Shown: piece by piece, positions 1-6,699 of the stretch
Position numbering within the stretch: position 1 is the stretch's first letter
Layout of the letters: each line of letters starts with the position of its first letter
IMG/VR virus record: IMGVR_UViG_3300021399_000111
Coordinates: 1-64,000 of that record
Source: a virus
Lineage: Duplodnaviria; Caudoviricetes
Direction: 5' to 3' (one strand)
Length of the DNA stretch: 64,000 bases
Program-made: the position numbers and the translations under genes
The notes under the pieces: generated by a model
Told to the model about the DNA's origin: nothing
Seen by the model: the letters and a program-made list of their open reading frames with translations, nothing else
The model's database searches: none

Positions 1-70
1 CACGCTGGATTTTCTGCAAGGCTTTGTAGGCTTTTTTAGTCATTCCCTTTTTATTTCCGATGCTTGCCAT
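1..70 (-). CDS. small basic protein, 5' part only (runs off the window)
   Basis: ATG at 70, RBS GAAAGTGAGGG, own promoter TTGATT-17-TATAAT at 124-96; reads MASIGNKKGMTKKAYKALQKIQR... Confidence 0.6.
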   Translation of the reverse strand, partial: MASIGNKKGMTKKAYKALQKIQR

Positions 71-133
71 TGTCTGTCCCTCACTTTCTAAAAAAATTAT
101 ATCAAAAAATTATAAAAAAATCAAGTAGTAATT

Positions 134-286
134 TTATACAAATTTCGGGATCCTAGGGCAGAAAAATTTGTGCAATTTGTCTATTGACAAAAAACTGAAA
201 TGATGATATAATGAAAAACTCGGTGCATTTCCGCAAAGAGCGCCCGGAAATGCGCCGCCAATAAAAAAGGCGCCCCGAAGGGCGCC
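134..286 (+). repeat. composite repeat unit 1 (palindrome + promoter + GC hairpin + terminator)
   Basis: TTATACAAATTT(134)/AAATTTGTGCAA(164); TTGACA(184)-17-TATAAT(207); stem CGGTGCATTTCCG/CGGAAATGCGCCG 221-257; A-run then GGCGCCC-CGAA-GGGCGCC 269-286. Confidence 0.85.
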
Positions 287-298
287 AAAGAGAGGTCA

Positions 299-460
299 TC
301 AGATGCGGATCCGCCTGGCTTCCTGAATCGGGAGCAGAGGCGCCGACTTTTCGGCGGTGACATCCTCAAAGTCAACCGTGTACTTCTGTCCAGAGGCATT
401 AGCCTCGTTCATCGTGCGAACAACAGTGCCATCAGCAAGAACATAGATAAGATTTCTCAT
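299..460 (-). CDS. 53-aa hypothetical protein (below ORF-track cutoff)
   Basis: AAAAGAGAGGTAAACAAA-ATG; MRNLIYVLADGTVVRTMNEANASGQKY...RRIRI, double TGA stop; perfect promoter TTGACA-17-TATAAT at 546-518. Confidence 0.8.
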   Translation of the reverse strand: MRNLIYVLADGTVVRTMNEANASGQKYTVDFEDVTAEKSAPLLPIQEARRIRI

Positions 461-542
461 TTTGTTTACCTCTCTTTTGTGAATTGTTGTGGGGGTGTTC
501 CCCTGTTTTCTAAAATCATTATAGCATTATTTTTTTTATTTG

Positions 543-779
543 TCAACCTCTTTTTACAAGAAAGTTGAAAATAATCAATCCAAGGGTGATTGCAAAGCAG
601 GCGCAATCCTTAACCTTGTCAGCGGTAGGGCGCTCAAGGATAAAGCAACGGATGGCGGAAATGGTGTTACATCCGAGATAGATAAACTGTCCGAGATAAA
701 AATTTTCGCCAACTACGCACTGGGCAACAATCAGACCGATAAGAACAACAAACTGGAGATTTTCAACAAACTTTTTCAT
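543..779 (-). CDS. small membrane protein (78 aa, about 3 hydrophobic segments)
   Basis: Start moved to MKKFVENLQF because of RBS AAAGAGAGGT; hydrophobic stretches. Confidence 0.75.
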   Translation of the reverse strand: MKKFVENLQFVVLIGLIVAQCVVGENFYLGQFIYLGCNTISAIRCFILERPTADKVKDCACFAITLGLIIFNFLVKRG

Positions 780-850
780 ACTCACTACCTCTCTTTCTCT
801 CTCTTGACAATAACAGTATAACACATTACAGGATAAATACAACATACAAA

Positions 851-970
851 TTGCACAAAATTTGGATTGTATTTTTGTGCAAGATTACTATTGACAGAAA
901 ATGCGCGCCATGCCGAGTTATGCACGGCGCGCCAATAAAAAGAGAGGTGCGGAAAGTTTCCGCACCTTTT
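851..970 (+). repeat. composite repeat unit 2 (no -10 box)
   Basis: TTGCACAAAA(851)/TTTTTGTGCAA(872); TTGACA 891 runs straight into GCGCGCC..GGCGCGC hairpin 903-932; terminator AGGTGCGGAAA-G-TTTCCGCACCT 945-967. Confidence 0.85.
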
Positions 971-985
971 AATTTTGGTTCTTTG

Positions 986-1408
986 TTATGCGAGGGAGTA
1001 AAGGCTATCTCTCACCTCGATTTCTACAGAGTAATCATAATTTCTGACAGTAATCTTATAAGGGTCTGAATATCTCTGCTTCAAGAAGCCGCTTGCGCAC
1101 AGTCTACGGCAAGTCGCGGTAGCTCTCTGCACCGTCCAACGGATACCATTTTCTCTAAGATATTCTACAATATCCTTAATCTTACATTCTCCCCCTAACT
1201 TCTCAAAAAATTCCATAACCACGGAGATATCCTTGCCAAGCTGAATCATTTCCATAAAATTACTAGAAGAAACTGAACTGCATGCTGAAGCTTCGGTAAC
1301 GCGAATGTTTCCGCGATGATTGCGCCAATAAAATGCATATCTATCACACATTACCGCAAGTCCAATCATTTCAAGATTCTCTTTTGTCATAAAATTGCTA
1401 ACTTCCAT
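986..1408 (-). CDS. putative winged-helix DNA-binding protein
   Basis: C-terminal KIKDIVEYLRENGIRWTVQRATATCRRLCASGFLKQ looks like a wHTH; RBS spacing favours ATG 1408; promoter TTGACA-17-TAAAGT at 1463-1435. Confidence 0.55.
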   Translation of the reverse strand: MEVSNFMTKENLEMIGLAVMCDRYAFYWRNHRGNIRVTEASACSSVSSSNFMEMIQLGKDISVVMEFFEKLGGECKIKDIVEYLRENGIRWTVQRATATCRRLCASGFLKQRYSDPYKITVRNYDYSVEIEVRDSLYSLA

Positions 1409-1459
1409 TTTCATTTACCTCTCTTTCTATAACTACTTTATCATATAAAGGCTTTTTTG

Positions 1460-1900
1460 TCAAGCCCCTTTTTTAAATTTTTTAATTTGTTTTGTAGTCA
1501 GAAGAGTTGCACCGTCAAATTTGATTTGTACTTCTCTTCCGTCGATATTAATATCACCTTGCATCCAAAAAGGAATTGTATCTTTTTCCCAAGTCTGTCC
1601 ATAATATTCAGTGACAAGTTTCTCGAAAATCTCACCTTTATTATACTTATCATTAACCAACTGGCACTCTGAACCTAAGCACACAGGATTTTTCTTCATA
1701 AGTTGTGCCTTATAGGCTTTCTTGACGCGGAGGCGGAGATTGTCGCCCTGATTGCGGCTTGCCTCCTCTGCGGAAAGATATCTAGGCATGATCTCCGCAA
1801 CATTTACCATATAAATATTTTTATCATAGGTAAAGCCTAAAATATAACTATCCGCCGCCGACTTATCTCTATACCATTTCATCATCGTTTTCTTTGTCAT
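1460..1900 (-). CDS. hypothetical protein (146 aa)
   Basis: ORF with AAAGAGAGGT RBS and promoter TTGCAT-17-TATAAT at 1966-1938; GEIFE...GDINIDGREVQIK is weakly PD-(D/E)xK-like. Confidence 0.7.
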   Translation of the reverse strand: MTKKTMMKWYRDKSAADSYILGFTYDKNIYMVNVAEIMPRYLSAEEASRNQGDNLRLRVKKAYKAQLMKKNPVCLGSECQLVNDKYNKGEIFEKLVTEYYGQTWEKDTIPFWMQGDINIDGREVQIKFDGATLLTTKQIKKFKKGA

Positions 1901-1975
1901 CTGTTAAGTACCTCTCTTTCCCTTACCTTGTAAATACATTATACTCCCCGGTAGGCAAAAATGCAATAGGGCAAA

Positions 1976-2132
1976 TTGCACAAAATTTTGGGATAAAATT
2001 TGTGCATTTTGCTGATTAAAAAGTGCTTGACAAAATGTTAAAGGTATGGTATAATATAAAATTCGGCGCGCCGCGGAGTGGTATGATCGCAGGCGCGCCG
2101 GCAAAAAGAGAGGGCGGTCAAATGACCGCCCT
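1976..2132 (+). repeat. composite repeat unit 3
   Basis: TTGCACAAAATTT(1976)/AAATTTGTGCAT(1996); TTGACA(2027)-17-TATAAT(2050); CGGCGCGCC..GGCGCGCCG 2064-2100; AGGGCGGTCA-AA-TGACCGCCCT 2111-2132. Confidence 0.85.
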
Positions 2133-2564
2133 TAAAGCATCAATAATGTTATCCGTAGCATCTACTGTTGCGCCTAAGTCCCAGGCGGTGCGGTTCTGCT
2201 CTTCATCATCTACGAGAATTCCTTTTCCGTATCTTCTGCAAGTATCTGCTTTCCGCACTCCATAAGGGGTAACGATGATTGCGTCAAGCAAGTCACTTAA
2301 ACAACGCTCCCAGAGCCATTTCCGCTTAACCTTTGCGACAGCCTTGTCATAGTCAGCGTTTCTTTCCTTGCTTCCCCAAGAGATAACACCGAGATTGTAG
2401 CCCCGCATTTTCAAATCAGCGAAAAGCGCAAGCAAATCAATTTCTGCATAAAGCGGGCGGGCTTCCGCATAAGGTCTGACATTGTGAGCCCTAAGATCAT
2501 CAAGCCAGCCATCTACTCCATACAGGTCTGCAATAGTACCATCCATGTCAAACCAAATCCACAT
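2118..2564 (-). CDS. HAD-superfamily phosphatase, 5'(3')-nucleotidase-like
   Basis: Motif I FDMDGT, motif II ISW, K, motif IV LVDD; start MWIWFD after the RBS; promoter TTGCTT-17-TAGTAT at 2618-2590. Confidence 0.8.
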   Translation of the reverse strand: MWIWFDMDGTIADLYGVDGWLDDLRAHNVRPYAEARPLYAEIDLLALFADLKMRGYNLGVISWGSKERNADYDKAVAKVKRKWLWERCLSDLLDAIIVTPYGVRKADTCRRYGKGILVDDEEQNRTAWDLGATVDATDNIIDALRAVI

Positions 2565-2627
2565 ACTGTTTACCTCTCTTTCTGTATACATACTAGCATA
2601 AATTGCAGGATAAAGCAATAGGTAATA

Positions 2628-2763
2628 TTGCACAAAATTTGCTATAAAAATTTGTGCAAATTTACCATTGACAGAAAAAACGCGTCGTGGGGATTCATCC
2701 ACGACGCGCCAAACAAATGTTATTTAATAAAATAAAAAGAGAGGTGGCGGTTTCCCGCCACCT
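2628..2763 (+). repeat. composite repeat unit 4 (no -10 box)
   Basis: TTGCACAAAATTT(2628)/AAATTTGTGCAA(2648); TTGACA 2668; perfect stem CGCGTCGTGG/CCACGACGCG 2681-2708; AGGTGGCGG-TTTC-CCGCCACCT 2742-2763. Confidence 0.85.
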
Positions 2764-2769
2764 GTTATT

Positions 2770-2967
2770 TTAATTCTCCTTTTCAGTGACAACAATACGA
2801 ATGTTATTAACAGCGTCCTCATCGTGATTACCCAGAATCGTATCAAGAAGGTAATCAAGATCTTTAATCTTATCGCCATCATCATACATAACTAAAAAGG
2901 CAAAACTCTTAAGGACTTGTCTTTCTTCTTCTGTTAAATAAAGCGTTGTTTGTGTGTTCATTTTCAT
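2770..2967 (-). CDS. hypothetical acidic protein (65 aa)
   Basis: RBS AAAGAGAGGTG; perfect promoter TTGACA-17-TATAAT at 3023-2995. Confidence 0.75.
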   Translation of the reverse strand: MKMNTQTTLYLTEEERQVLKSFAFLVMYDDGDKIKDLDYLLDTILGNHDEDAVNNIRIVVTEKEN

Positions 2968-3003
2968 AGTTATTCACCTCTCTTTCTATTGTTTATTATA
3001 GCA

Positions 3004-3219
3004 TTAAGATTTTGATTTGTCAAGCTTTTTTCTGCGGTCAATGTGAACAATAATTGCACGGATAATCGCGCAGGTAATTGCTACAGGCCAAAGGATACCC
3101 GCAAGTAAATCCTCAAAATCGGCTATTAAGCAACCGCTACCAATGCTAATAAAATTTATAATGTGAGCGATAATAAAGTAAGCAAGAGCAATGATAAGGA
3201 TAATTTCAAGGGTAGTCAT
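3004..3219 (-). CDS. small membrane protein (71 aa, 2 TM segments, basic tail)
   Basis: Start MTTLEIILII after AAAGAGAGGTAAACAAA; perfect promoter at 3273-3245. Confidence 0.75.
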   Translation of the reverse strand: MTTLEIILIIALAYFIIAHIINFISIGSGCLIADFEDLLAGILWPVAITCAIIRAIIVHIDRRKKLDKSKS

Positions 3220-3279
3220 TTTGTTTACCTCTCTTTCTGAAGTCATTATATCATTTTTATTTTGGAGTGTCAAGAACTT

Positions 3280-3417
3280 TTTTTGAGGTAGTTTCCATCG
3301 GGTGGACAGGCTTTCAAGTGGTAGTTTCGGCTTTGTCAAGTCAATTCCATCACCCTATTTACTTTGTCAGTGCCGATTATCTCTTCAAGAGGTATCCGCT
3401 ACCTTTTCCCTCTCTGT
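3280..3417 (-). ncRNA. candidate structured non-coding RNA (about 140 nt)
   Basis: Promoter TTGACA-17-TATACT at 3452-3424, no credible ORF/RBS downstream; internal complementarities GGTAG/CTACC (x2), TCGGC/GCCGA, GGGTG/CACCC, CTCTT/AAGAG. Confidence 0.45.
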
Positions 3418-3470
3418 GATTATAGTATACTGCTAGCCTTCCCTACTGTCAAGAGAAAGTGTAAAAAATA

Positions 3471-3619
3471 TTGCACAAATTTTGGGATCCTTTGAAGTGA
3501 AAATTTGTGCAAATTGTCTATTGACAAAATGTGGCGGAAATGATATAATTAAAATTTCGGCGCGCGTGGATCGTGCGCGCGGCGCCAAACAAAAAACAGG
3601 GAAGGCTTTAAGCCTTCCC
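3471..3619 (+). repeat. composite repeat unit 5
   Basis: TTGCACAAATTT(3471)/AAATTTGTGCAA(3501); TTGACA(3521)-17-TATAAT(3544); GCGCGCG..TGCGCGC hairpin 3560-3580; GGGAAGGCTT-T-AAGCCTTCCC 3599-3619. Confidence 0.85.
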
Positions 3620-3910
3620 ATAGAGACGCGCCAGAGCGCTTTCCAATTCATCATCGTCGAGGGTGATGAGTTCGATGTCTTCCCCTTCCCAGTCATCTTC
3701 CTCATACTCCTCGCCGAAGTAGACGCCCTGACAGTCAGGACACATGCCAGAGACAAGCGCTTCCCGCTCTGTTGCGGTCAGATAGGGAAAAGCGTTCTGG
3801 ACGAGCGCCCCTCTCTGATAGCGGATGTAGTCCTCTTCCCGCACCGCCACAGAGAAAAGCTTCCCGCAGAAAGGGCAGACAATAGTAAGTTCAAGATTTC
3901 TGTTCATCAT
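3608..3910 (-). CDS. zinc-ribbon protein with acidic tail
   Basis: CPFC...CPDC pair, tail EEYEEDDWEGEDIE; RBS; promoter TTGACA-17-TAAAAT at 3965-3937. Confidence 0.75.
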   Translation of the reverse strand: MMNRNLELTIVCPFCGKLFSVAVREEDYIRYQRGALVQNAFPYLTATEREALVSGMCPDCQGVYFGEEYEEDDWEGEDIELITLDDDELESALARLYGKA

Positions 3911-3972
3911 AGTTATTTACCTCTCTTTCTAGGTCTATTTTACTATTTATTATTGTTAATGTCAAGCACTTT

Positions 3973-4113
3973 TTACAGAACTTTTTCAATAATCTTGACG
4001 CGGTCTCCGCTGGCATCGATCATCACCTTGATAACCACCTGTCCCTTGCTAGCCTTGCAGGCTTCCTTAGCGGTGCTGAAGTTCTTTCCTCTAGTCTTGT
4101 AGTAGATAGCCAT
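3973..4113 (-). CDS. 46-aa basic hypothetical protein (below ORF-track cutoff)
   Basis: AAAGAGAGGAAA RBS; MAIYYKTRGKNFSTAKEACKASKGQVVIKVMIDASGDRVKIIEKVL*; promoter TTGACA-17-TATTAT at 4186-4158. Confidence 0.75.
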   Translation of the reverse strand: MAIYYKTRGKNFSTAKEACKASKGQVVIKVMIDASGDRVKIIEKVL

Positions 4114-4204
4114 TTTATTTTCCTCTCTTTTGCTGTTGTTCTCTTGTTTCTGTAATAATAATACTGCTGTATACTCATTTTGTCAAATAATTTTGATAAA
4201 AAAG

Positions 4205-4379
4205 TTGCATAAATTTCAGGATCAAATACCAGAAATTTTTGTGCAATTTGTCTATTGACAAAATATTGAAACATGTGGTATAATGAAAAATCGCGCGCGA
4301 GAGGACCATTCGCGCGCCATCGCAAGTTGTCATTTTTACATTTGCGCAAAAGAAAAAACTGCGTTTCCGCAGTTTTTCT
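4205..4379 (+). repeat. composite repeat unit 6
   Basis: TTGCATAAATTT(4205)/TTTTTGTGCAA(4236); TTGACA(4255)-18-TATAAT(4279); GCGCGCGA..TCGCGCGC 4293-4317; AGAAAAAACTGCG-TTTC-CGCAGTTTTTCT 4351-4379. Confidence 0.85.
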
Positions 4380-4382
4380 CTC

Positions 4383-4577
4383 TTACTCCTCGAAGTCGTC
4401 CATCTCTTCTGCGTAGTACTGGTCAAGGCTACGGTAGCCAGTCCGCACATACACAACTGCGTTGAGTACCTGTTCCCAAGAGCCTGCCATCAGGTTGCGT
4501 GCCAGATTCAACTCGTCAGCGGTTGCGATTCCAAGTTCTACAATCTGGTCATAATCCATCATTTCCTTCTGTGTCAT
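4383..4577 (-). CDS. hypothetical acidic protein (64 aa)
   Basis: RBS AAGAGAGGTAAAC; promoter TTGACA-17-TAGAAT at 4651-4623. Confidence 0.75.
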   Translation of the reverse strand: MTQKEMMDYDQIVELGIATADELNLARNLMAGSWEQVLNAVVYVRTGYRSLDQYYAEEMDDFEE

Positions 4578-4659
4578 AGTGTTTACCTCTCTTGCTTTTG
4601 TTGTTATCTCTTTGATGATTTTATTCTATCACCTTTTGTTGATTGTGTCAACCCCTTTT

Positions 4660-4872
4660 TTAGTATCCATACTCACCATGCGCCCAAGCGTTCCACCAGA
4701 AGAACTCTGCCATTTCATCATCGTTGTGCTTTACGATAGACCAACCCCAACCCATCTTATCACTCTTTGCAAGTGCCTTTTCTGCCTCTTCCTTGCTGAT
4801 GTGCCCGTAGCCCATGGGAGTGTGTCCCTTTCTGTTGATGATCGAGTATCTGTAATCTTCTACGGTTTTCAT
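4660..4872 (-). CDS. hypothetical protein (70 aa, Trp-rich C-terminus)
   Basis: RBS AGAGAGGTAAACAAA; promoter TTGACA-17-TATTAT at 4942-4914. Confidence 0.75.
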   Translation of the reverse strand: MKTVEDYRYSIINRKGHTPMGYGHISKEEAEKALAKSDKMGWGWSIVKHNDDEMAEFFWWNAWAHGEYGY

Positions 4873-4960
4873 TTTGTTTACCTCTCTGTTGTTGTTTCCT
4901 TGTTTCTGTAATAATAATACATTAAAAAGAAAAAAGTGTCAACACTTTTTAAAGAAAAAG

Positions 4961-5160
4961 TTGCACAAAATACACAGATCTTGTTTGTGCATTTTGTACA
5001 TTTCTTTGATAATTTTTTAACAAGATCCTTTGTGCATGTTGTACACATTTTAGGATCATTTAGCCTGTATCTTTGTGCAATTTGCCTATTGACAAAAGTT
5101 GAAAGATGTAGTATAATGGAAGAACGGCGCTTGACGTGATAATGCGCTCGCCTGCGCGCC
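4961..5160 (+). repeat. composite repeat unit 7 (terminal, extra half-sites)
   Basis: Half-sites TTGCACAAA 4961, TTTGTGCAT 4984 and 5029, TTGTACAC 5039, TTTGTGCAA 5072; TTGACA(5089)-17-TATAAT(5112); GGCGC..GCGCC 5126-5160. Confidence 0.8.
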
Positions 5161-5541
5161 TAGCAAATTATTCCAGTTTAATTATAACTATTTGATTTTC
5201 AACTATTCTGTTCTATTGTTTATTCTATCTTGTTTGTTTGCTTTTGATACGCCTGTATTTATTTGTTATCTTTTTCTATCATTTTGTAGAGGGGTCTGTT
5301 TTTAGAGAGGGTCTCTGACAAAGCTCGAATCTACGTAGATTCCTGGTACTTTTTTCCGGGGGGAGTATTTTCGGGAAAATTTAAATGGAGATTGTAAAAA
5401 TCTTTTTGCCTCCACAACTCCCCCACCAAAAATTTTTTCTATTTTAAAAAACGAACACTATTTTAGGCTTTTAAAAAACGATATATATTTTCTCATTTCC
5501 CGCAAAAATATACCGCATGCATATTTAATTTCCGTTTTCGC

Positions 5542-5570
5542 TTGACATTGTCAAAAATTTTTGGTATAAT
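5542..5570 (+). promoter_or_regulatory. sigma-A-type promoter of the packaging operon
   Basis: TTGACA-17-TATAAT with extended -10 TG. Confidence 0.8.
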
Positions 5571-5601
5571 AACAATAGGTGTAGAAAGGAGAGCATACAC
5601 A

Positions 5602-6699
5602 ATGAATGAAGAAGGATATATAAAAATGGACTTTTCTCTCACTTCCGCACAAGAGCGAAATGAAAAAGTCAAAGAAATCCTCGCAAATACACCTCCTGAA
5701 AAACTTACTCCTTTATACCTTAATAAATTAGCAGAATATATTGTAGAACCAATTACAGACCAAGAGAAAAAAGAAAAACGCATATTAACAAGCAACATGA
5801 TGGTAACAGTAGGGAAAAGAGAAGTTTCCTTAGAAGGTTTAATTAGTAAACTTGAAAATGGGGAAGATGGCATTTATGGCATGATAGCTAATGATAAAAA
5901 TATTATCTTCCAACCAAAATCTGGTATTACACAAAAGGATTTAGACACAATTCAGCCCTTGCGGGAATTATATGAAGAGATTTTAAAACTAGAAGAAAAA
6001 ATTAAACATAGCCGCGGCAAGCATGCTTTCGCACTTCATAAACAATTAATAGAAATGCGGAAAGACCAATATGTTATTAGAAGTGCTTACCGCCCGCAAA
6101 TTTATAGTACAAATATTACAAAAAGTGCTGCCCGCTTAGACCTTTCAGAAAAAGTTACAATAGATGAGGCAGGACATGTCCATAGTAATGGAATAATCAA
6201 TTTTTACGATGAAAAGCATATTTCCATGCTTTTGTGTAATTATTCAAAAATAAAAGAAGAATGCTGGGATAAGTTTAATAGTGATATGAAATGGTTAATG
6301 GAAGATTTAGATAATCTCATTGACAATACATTGCGGGAAGACTATCCTATGTATTATGATCTTCTAATTTATAAAATTGATGGCCGCCAGAATATTGAAA
6401 TTCAAGAACTACTTTATGATAAATATGGCATAAAGCATTCTGTTGAATACATTTCTTCTTTATGGCGGAATAAAATTCCAAAATTAATAGTACAAGAAGC
6501 GGAAAATGAATACCTTATTTGGTATTACACAAATGTAGAACGCGGAAAGTGGAAACGCTGTTCAAAATGTGGGCAAATTAAGTTAGCTCATAATAACTTT
6601 TTTTCAAAAAATAATACCTCAAAAGATGGCTTTTATAGTATTTGTAAAAAATGTAGAAATGTAAAAAATAAAAAAATTATGCCGATAAGCAGAACTTAA
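5602..6699 (+). CDS. DNA-binding protein with helix-turn-helix-like region and C-terminal Zn finger (possible transcription regulator)
   Basis: Start set at ATG 5602 (RBS AAGGAG); NIEIQELLYDKYGIKHSVEYISSLW is HTH-like; CSKC...CKKC. Confidence 0.55.
   Translation: MNEEGYIKMDFSLTSAQERNEKVKEILANTPPEKLTPLYLNKLAEYIVEPITDQEKKEKRILTSNMMVTVGKREVSLEGLISKLENGEDGIYGMIANDKNIIFQPKSGITQKDLDTIQPLRELYEEILKLEEKIKHSRGKHAFALHKQLIEMRKDQYVIRSAYRPQIYSTNITKSAARLDLSEKVTIDEAGHVHSNGIINFYDEKHISMLLCNYSKIKEECWDKFNSDMKWLMEDLDNLIDNTLREDYPMYYDLLIYKIDGRQNIEIQELLYDKYGIKHSVEYISSLWRNKIPKLIVQEAENEYLIWYYTNVERGKWKRCSKCGQIKLAHNNFFSKNNTSKDGFYSICKKCRNVKNKKIMPISRT

Follow-up and report, generated by a model that had tools for sequence, protein, structure and literature searches.

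The cassette array and its recurrence in related phages

The stretch analyzed here is a 64,000-nt window from a tailed phage (Caudoviricetes; IMG/VR record IMGVR_UViG_3300021399_000111), and its subject is an array of repeated intergenic cassettes, each built around an inverted repeat that lies between two divergent promoters. Coordinates are window positions (1-64,000) unless marked "genome". The source record, a virus contig of 141,935 bp, repeats its opening 30 nt at genome 141,808, which indicates a circular assembly of ~141.8 kb with a 127-nt end overlap; this end repeat is an assembly overlap and is not evidence on the ends of the virion DNA. The window opens inside the array, which runs on across position 1, within an early block of ~12 kb (about genome 134.6 kb to window 4.9 kb) where all genes are small and leftward. 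In the window these genes occupy the minus strand of 1..4872 (299-460, 543-779, 986-1414, 1460-1900, 2118-2564, 2770-2967, 3004-3219, 3608-3910, 3973-4113, 4383-4577 and 4660-4872), and a promoter scan found consensus promoters of their own at many small early genes. The border between the early and late blocks is marked by a phage sigma-factor gene (5602..6699, plus strand) with its own consensus promoter at 5542-5570, and terminase and portal genes come next. Giant open reading frames (ORFs) encode a tape measure and a tail fibre (2960 and 2098 aa), so nothing pointed to a virion RNA polymerase acting on hairpin promoters in the style of N4 or crAss phages, and the array is assigned to an early block that depends on the host polymerase.

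A preliminary description of the window had reported seven elements, and all of them were present where it had placed them (134, 851, 1976, 2628, 3471, 4205 and 4961). That count stands for the window only, since the whole circular genome carries 13 units and one decayed copy: further units start at genome 135683, 136915, 138309, 139000, 140072 and 141008, and the decayed copy lies near genome 134470. All 13 units share the plus strand and are dispersed through the block that ends at the sigma-factor gene. Counting the motif over the whole genome gave 11 forward occurrences on the plus strand, none in reverse and none for the control. Exact TTGCACAAA-N-TTTGTGCAA was found at 851, 2628 and 3471 (three copies, with none expected from shuffled sequence), while the copies at 134, 1976, 4205 and 4961 carry one or two mismatches; TTTGTGCAA-N8-TTGACA was exact at six positions (167, 874, 2651, 3504, 4238 and 5072). 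Overall identity between copies is 61-78%, with identical runs of 23-28 nt in common.

In each unit, TTGCACAAA-N14/24-TTTGTGCAA separates a divergent pair of sigma-A promoters and stands 8-10 or 18-20 nt upstream of either -35 box. The palindrome does lie between the two -35 boxes as first described, and TTTGTGCAA also stands 8-10 or 19 nt from the leftward -35, which makes the palindrome a shared upstream site of two divergent promoters. Class 1 units combine a 24-nt spacer with a promoter 8-9 nt away, class 2 units a 14-nt spacer with a promoter 20 nt away, and class 3 units (genome 139000, unit 2 and unit 4) a 14-nt spacer with a TTGACA 9 nt away that has no -10 box and is followed directly by a hairpin. 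The gene-side promoter is usually below consensus, with a weak -35, whereas the anti-gene promoter is near-perfect, with a consensus -35, a TG-extended -10 and a GGA discriminator. In complete units a GC hairpin starts 8-9 nt after this -10, so that transcription from the anti-gene promoter would first enter this hairpin, which directly follows the terminator of the convergent gene; leftward modules therefore each end in their own terminator and then in a second hairpin.

Unit 1 comprises the inverted repeat TTATACAAA-N24-TTTGTGCAA (134..175), a gene-side promoter TTGATT-17-TATAAT on the minus strand (96..124) and an anti-gene consensus promoter on the plus strand (184..212), both from the promoter scan, and a GC hairpin at 222..256 (-17.8 kcal/mol, z -3.7), beyond which the terminator scan placed the minus-strand terminator of gene 299-460 (269..286). 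The repeat of unit 2 is exact with a 14-nt spacer (851..882); its TG-extended gene-side promoter TTGTAT-16-TATACT (815..842, minus strand) was recognized partly by eye, and on the other side TTGACA without a -10 and the GC hairpin (891..932), whose minus strand scores as a terminator (932..903), precede a bidirectional terminator after gene 986-1414 (945..967, terminator scan). Unit 3 has a 14-nt spacer and the right half TTTGTGCAT (1976..2007), a gene-side promoter TTGCAT-17-TATAAT (1938..1966, minus strand), an anti-gene consensus promoter 20 nt from the repeat (2027..2055, plus strand), a GC hairpin of -24.2 kcal/mol (2064..2100) and the minus-strand terminator of the deoxyribonucleotidase-like gene 2118-2564 (2111..2132). 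Unit 4 again carries an exact repeat with a 14-nt spacer (2628..2659), then TTGACA without a -10 and a GC hairpin (2668..2708) whose minus strand scores as a terminator (2710..2679), and a bidirectional terminator after gene 2770-2967 (2742..2763). The exact 24-nt-spaced repeat of unit 5 (3471..3512) is flanked by a gene-side promoter (3424..3452, minus strand) and an anti-gene consensus promoter (3521..3549, plus strand), with a GC hairpin whose stem is a CG repeat (3559..3586, z -0.9). In unit 6 the repeat TTGCATAAA-N24-TTTGTGCAA (4205..4246) is followed by an anti-gene consensus promoter (4255..4284, plus strand), a GC hairpin (4293..4317) and a two-way terminator seen by eye at ~4357-4380, so that this unit alone in the window predicts a short RNA (~88 nt). 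Unit 7 is a half-site cluster (4961..5080, half-sites at 4961, 4984, 5029 and 5072) between the rightmost early promoter, its gene-side promoter (4914..4942, minus strand), and a consensus promoter directed towards the sigma gene (5089..5117, plus strand), after which 5125-5160 holds no significant hairpin (z 0.18).

These scans reproduced the perfect plus-strand TTGACA-17/18-TATAAT promoters described for units 1, 3, 5, 6 and 7, the missing -10 box in units 2 and 4, and the minus-strand gene terminators at units 1-6 (by scan for units 1-5). The hairpins were reproduced in part: 12 of 13 are strong (-14 to -24 kcal/mol), with z between -2.6 and -5.8 relative to shuffles in 11 units, and that of unit 7, the sole unit that faces no gene end, equals its shuffles. 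A T-rich tract (AATTTT or TTTTT) comes after the GC hairpin when the minus strand is read, and four of the 13 units pass the terminator scan. A sigma-54 promoter within the units was rejected by eye on account of unsuitable spacing.

Relatives were anchored on the sigma factor, which resulted in at least 165 loci with 49-67% identity (67% for the best relative found), of which 80 were kept for analysis; counts of cassette promoters refer to these 80 loci together with loci from a motif scan. The repeat occurred in at least 114 viral contigs, with TTGACA at an equal distance in 39 of them, and the repeat with N8-TTGACA occurred in 31 genome-collection contigs, nearly all of them metagenome-assembled genomes (MAGs) and many binned to Clostridia. 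Arrays recur upstream of the sigma gene in the relatives, with copy number and position varying by genome, and only about 4-6 of some 35 early-gene families in this phage are common to them. Units thus persist while the genes between them vary, and the view of the array as one coordinated, selected system is upheld by a cassette that recurs among mostly different intervening genes. Hundreds of related uncultured phages with the same design argue for a real regulatory architecture and not for a set of small-RNA genes. We found no annotated relative of this phage in the annotated phage collection and no published description of this cassette architecture in the literature searched.

Across all loci we collected 399 distinct element-bearing promoters, 192 with a strong downstream hairpin and 163 with none. 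Of 160 hairpin promoters in the family loci, 116 are directed at the 3' end of a convergent gene, and 122 of 159 promoters without a hairpin drive a gene. In 31 relatives, hairpin promoters of the early 10 kb are on the anti-gene strand in 63 cases and on the gene strand in 21, compared with two hairpin promoters in the late 10 kb. Among 123 palindromes the -35 is perfect on the hairpin side in 46 of 51 cases (90%) compared with 37 of 110 (34%) on the gene side, and the -10 in 42 of 51 compared with 52 of 110. In some relatives a pair of promoters points from both sides at one hairpin. In one of these (L232:280-400 and L232:3500-3620) both are consensus promoters with a repeat each, and their -10 boxes stand only ~45-60 bp apart across the GC hairpin that they share, a distance at which two polymerases could not occupy them together; such pairs would seem to fit polymerase parking better than antisense RNA.

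The family is large, with at least 165 loci carrying a relative of the sigma gene and about 400 cassette promoters, and consists of uncultured phages of 130-200 kb from gut and rumen Clostridia. Its regulatory grammar of site, phasing, promoter asymmetry and hairpin is precise enough to test. Persistence of the cassettes between differing genes bears on how an early region stays plastic under fixed control.

Function of the cassettes

The repeat had been proposed as a protein-binding site, and its geometry agrees with this. Half-site spacing is quantised at 14 (63 cases), 24-25 (59 cases) and 31-33 nt (18 cases), 80% of half-sites are paired, and the distance to the -35 is fixed. All distances step by ~10 nt, which keeps the half-sites on a single helical face (about -48, -59, -70 and -81), and the fixed, in-phase upstream position points to a factor that contacts RNA polymerase rather than to a simple steric repressor. 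A further conserved sequence, (C/T)GGGA(T), is set 3-5 nt into the spacer and always adjoins the gene-side half-site (143-152, 1985-1992, 3480-3489 and 4214-4223 in the window); it recurs across the family, and the repeat is therefore asymmetric, so that a second protein or a heterodimer might be involved.

We put at roughly one half the probability that the units are cassettes which mark and control the boundaries between early-gene modules, each module being transcribed on its own. A dimeric DNA-binding factor would occupy the repeat and touch RNA polymerase, helping the weak gene-side promoter and perhaps clamping or modulating the consensus promoter, as phi29 p4 does. The hairpin and a polymerase loaded at the anti-gene promoter would stop leftward read-through, and each early module would thereby be insulated. 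Polymerases that escape would run head-on, antisense, into the preceding gene, and early expression would be damped or time-limited. As a side effect, the conserved cassettes could serve as recombination points for swaps of early genes. Several observations weigh against this reading: in a strict scan most hairpins are only moderate leftward terminators, the pairs of promoters converging on one hairpin are not fully explained by it, and neither is the conserved GGGA(T) beside one half-site.

The preliminary description had favored a family of discrete 50-100-nt hairpin small RNAs, in which each anti-gene promoter makes an RNA antisense to the 3' end of the neighboring gene. Such RNAs would resemble lambda OOP. 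The appeal of this model lies in consensus promoters that face gene ends and in hairpins so close to the -10 that the RNA would open with a protective stem; at unit 6 and the unit at genome 136915, moreover, same-strand terminators predict RNAs of ~80-90 nt. Yet 139 of 165 hairpin promoters (84%) have no same-strand terminator within 200 nt, so most transcripts would lack a defined 3' end, and the folds are equally stable on both strands (-18.3 versus -18.1 kcal/mol, 80 versus 75 cases), so that a strand-specific RNA structure is not supported. No loop or stem sequence is conserved, no Rfam family was matched at gathering or E-value thresholds, and three units hold the hairpin yet have lost the -10. 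The convergence on gene 3' ends is real, but gene-specific antisense control does not follow from it, as orthologous genes in relatives mostly lack the convergent promoter (6 of 40 have it for the deoxyribonucleotidase-like gene). Lambda OOP is one discrete, terminated antisense RNA with one conserved target; both systems have a promoter that runs towards the 3' end of a protein-coding gene, whereas here the promoter is not tied to a gene family and RNA and target are not retained together. A search for the strand of selection in G-U pairs revealed no bias. The hairpin small-RNA reading is thus weak, and we regard it as quite improbable.

Another reading holds that the cassettes are chiefly recombination modules for swapping early genes, like the promoter-early stem-loop (PeSL) cassettes of T4-like phages, with the anti-gene promoter a passenger copied from the unit 7 border. 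The persistence of arrays at 49-67% sigma identity with so few shared early-gene families, their varying number and position, the identical runs between copies, and a leftward order of terminator stem-loop, promoter, ribosome-binding site and start codon are all in keeping with it. We nevertheless consider it unlikely, because a passenger should decay and the anti-gene promoter is the best-conserved part of the unit; the copies are, besides, only 61-78% identical overall. Far less probable is that the rightward promoters serve a polar process at the DNA level, either genome entry driven by transcription or activation of an origin in 5160-5540. All units do point towards the early/late border, where the GC skew changes sign, and unit 7 fires into a 380-nt T-rich region free of genes. 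However, the skew here merely tracks gene orientation, the assembly overlap gives neither a genome end nor a packaging direction, the leader is not kept in relatives, long rightward transcripts would be cut short by the two-way terminators of units 2, 4 and 6, and the hairpins and their link to gene ends are left unexplained. A boundary between early-gene modules accordingly is the reading we prefer, and the preliminary interpretation as a whole is partly supported.

Dispersed operator regulons offer one comparison, including the C1 operators of P1, the stoperators of mycobacteriophage L5, the repeated elements of SPbeta and the KorB sites of RK2. In these, as may be the case here, at least a dozen sites for a single DNA-binding protein are distributed over a mobile genome, and many lie at promoters. 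Those systems act by repression, from sites that overlap promoters or are located within transcription units, whereas the site here lies upstream of two -35 boxes at a fixed phasing, is accompanied by an anti-gene promoter and a hairpin, and matches a motif of host chromosomes. The p4 site of phi29 is likewise an inverted repeat upstream of regulated promoters, and the strength of the -35 sets whether p4 activates or clamps. Here too an inverted repeat stands upstream of the -35 in phase with the promoter, and the sequence asymmetry between a weak and a consensus -35 matches this logic. The p4 protein is a precedent for an early/late switch (PMC3100819). The phi29 arrangement differs in having one switch region, against 13 dispersed copies here, and no hairpin at the transcript start, and the binder here may be a host protein.

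The closest known systems are the PeSL cassettes of T4-like myoviruses (PMC2839356, PMC4122927), an analogy that the preliminary description had listed as an alternative; the cassette would be a variant of these and not a member. Both are scattered among small, poorly conserved early genes of a plastic region, each gene has its own promoter and terminator in both, and, read leftward, the elements here come in the PeSL order. A strong sigma-70-type early promoter sits in a repeated intergenic motif, a stable adjacent stem-loop is predicted in silico to be able to terminate, and the copies flank variable orphan genes. In PeSLs, however, promoter and stem-loop are directed at the gene, whereas here the promoter next to the stem-loop, which is the best conserved, points the other way and only the second, divergent promoter is co-oriented with the genes. 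PeSLs have an AT-rich upstream region without a spaced, phased inverted repeat or a divergent promoter pair, and they belong to T4-like myoviruses, while the present array is carried by a long-tailed Clostridia phage that encodes a sigma factor of its own. The added operator and the anti-gene promoter set the cassette apart from PeSLs.

The inverted repeat in Clostridia and its candidate binders

The core of the repeat, TGCACAAA-N14-TTTGTGCA, is strongly enriched in the chromosomes of Ruminococcaceae and other Clostridia. At least 120 perfect copies with the 14-nt spacer were present in bacterial genome contigs, almost all from Clostridia and isolates included, and at 97 of 119 bacterial loci with a perfect site we observed neither a match to phage proteins nor phage-type promoter spacing. 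Most of the 121 Clostridia sampled have a few copies each. Sites outnumbered the reversed control by 21:1 in Ruminococcus bromii, 30:1 in FB2012 and 33:1 in a Ruminococcus MAG, although the reversed pattern holds CG dinucleotides and may under-count. The 14-nt spacer was found in 22 of 28 perfect host sites. Host sites fall between genes, beside housekeeping genes unrelated to one another, and in several cases a -35 follows 19-20 nt downstream. No theme is shared by their neighbors, which include EF-G, CarA, a MiaB-like protein, G5/M23, helicase, TetR and GntR genes, and nothing relevant on half-site strings or on a regulator of a 30-bp repeat was found among the papers searchable.

Some host loci show further structure. 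On Ruminococcus bromii contig 73 (L355:930-1650) four repeats fall within 720 bp of gene-poor DNA with repeated promoter-like units, where no Rfam family matched. In three loci of one Ruminococcus MAG (L356, L359 and L368) each repeat is followed 33 nt on by TGGCAAC-N5-CTGCA, which resembles a sigma-54 -24/-12 promoter and in L359 lies beside a DUF6291 gene; these may be the repeated promoter of a mobile element. In nine MAG loci of Clostridia (L249, L283, L329, L332, L333, L338, L341, L342 and L348) a perfect TTGCACAAA-N14-TTTGTGCAA adjoins a conserved TetR-family gene, 10-21 nt ahead of its first ATG. By eye, the repeat is in frame in at least two of these, with its own TTG a possible start codon, and in at least eight a divergent 494-aa, aminotransferase-like gene lies beyond the repeat. 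The TetR-family protein was rejected as the general host binder, being absent from five motif-rich genomes.

On the phage side, the protein of gene 986-1414, which had been suggested as the binder, drops out, with no Pfam match and no hit in any related locus. Two paralogous candidates of 120 and 130 aa, encoded at genome 135016-135378 and 140245-140637 and sharing 52% identity, took its place. Their family has no Pfam domain and no name in the source annotation; the structural model (predicted local distance difference test score, pLDDT, 88.6) has a C-terminal winged-helix pattern of secondary structure, with weak fold matches in the PDB to Fur, PerR and MarR-type regulators. The family was present in 10 of 10 family genomes checked, in 2-5 copies and often 200-480 nt downstream of a palindrome, but the repeat too was present in all ten, so that no negative set exists at the level of whole genomes. 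In this genome three tandem strong promoters drive each paralogue gene (L154:9380-9680 and L154:14640-15000, minus strand). Of the three, the inner two come with upstream elements in the form of long A-tracts, and three of the four inner promoters are followed by the same start sequence, GTTCTTGTA(A/G)CAA. Promoters of this kind imply very high early expression of the winged-helix genes.

Enrichment of the motif in Clostridia chromosomes makes a host factor the leading candidate, with the winged-helix paralogues second, and the motif-rich host genomes contain no homologue of the phage winged-helix protein. Judged from these genomic patterns, a host protein is somewhat favored as the binder, the phage paralogues are a distinctly less probable choice, and any other binder is improbable. 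A bolder and tentative extension is that the phage family wires its early program to a global DNA-binding factor of gut and rumen Clostridia through ~ten phased copies of TGCACAAA-N14-TTTGTGCA, the factor and the consensus anti-gene promoter together forming a programmable clamp on the polymerase and an insulator at the boundary of every early gene; we think this possible but doubtful. Points against the preferred boundary reading with its bound factor, besides the under-counting control, are a host motif with the 14-nt spacer only, where the phage also uses 24 and 32 nt, the mixed positions of host sites, some of which lie in 5' leaders, and an enrichment measured in the Clostridia sampled, which need not extend to the host of this phage. 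Nor does the presence of a winged-helix gene correlate with repeat number in 10-kb windows.

If a host factor does bind the repeat, the phage would be a concentrated natural bait for finding that factor, and early transcription in a virulent-type phage would be coupled to host physiology, for which phi29 and Spo0A are a parallel. The 20-33 copies of a 30-bp inverted repeat in some Ruminococcaceae genomes would then suggest a host regulon. Were the factor a global one, host state would gate infection, and through the cassettes a regulon would come to light that we did not find described in the literature searched.

Borders and composition of the early block

The G+C content of the early block (window 1-6000 and genome 134-141.8 kb) is 0.37-0.44, versus mostly 0.28-0.36 in the rest of the genome, a rise that may stem in part from the GC hairpins and terminators. 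Behind the gene-side promoter of unit 5 lies a leader without an ORF (3275-3420, minus strand) that folds like shuffled sequence (z -0.08) and matched nothing in the phage collection. The T-rich, gene-free stretch at 5160-5541, which separates unit 7 from the promoter of the sigma gene, coincides with the switch of gene orientation and GC skew and could be a replication origin or a leader; no conserved leader was seen upstream of the sigma gene in relatives, where promoter cores alone are kept. A perfect sigma-A promoter (genome 133,930-134,009; L154:7931-8010) stands at the left border of this block, in 700 nt of DNA that has long inverted repeats and no genes. Within ~15 nt it is followed on the same strand by a hairpin and U-tract, from which an RNA of ~45 nt is predicted.

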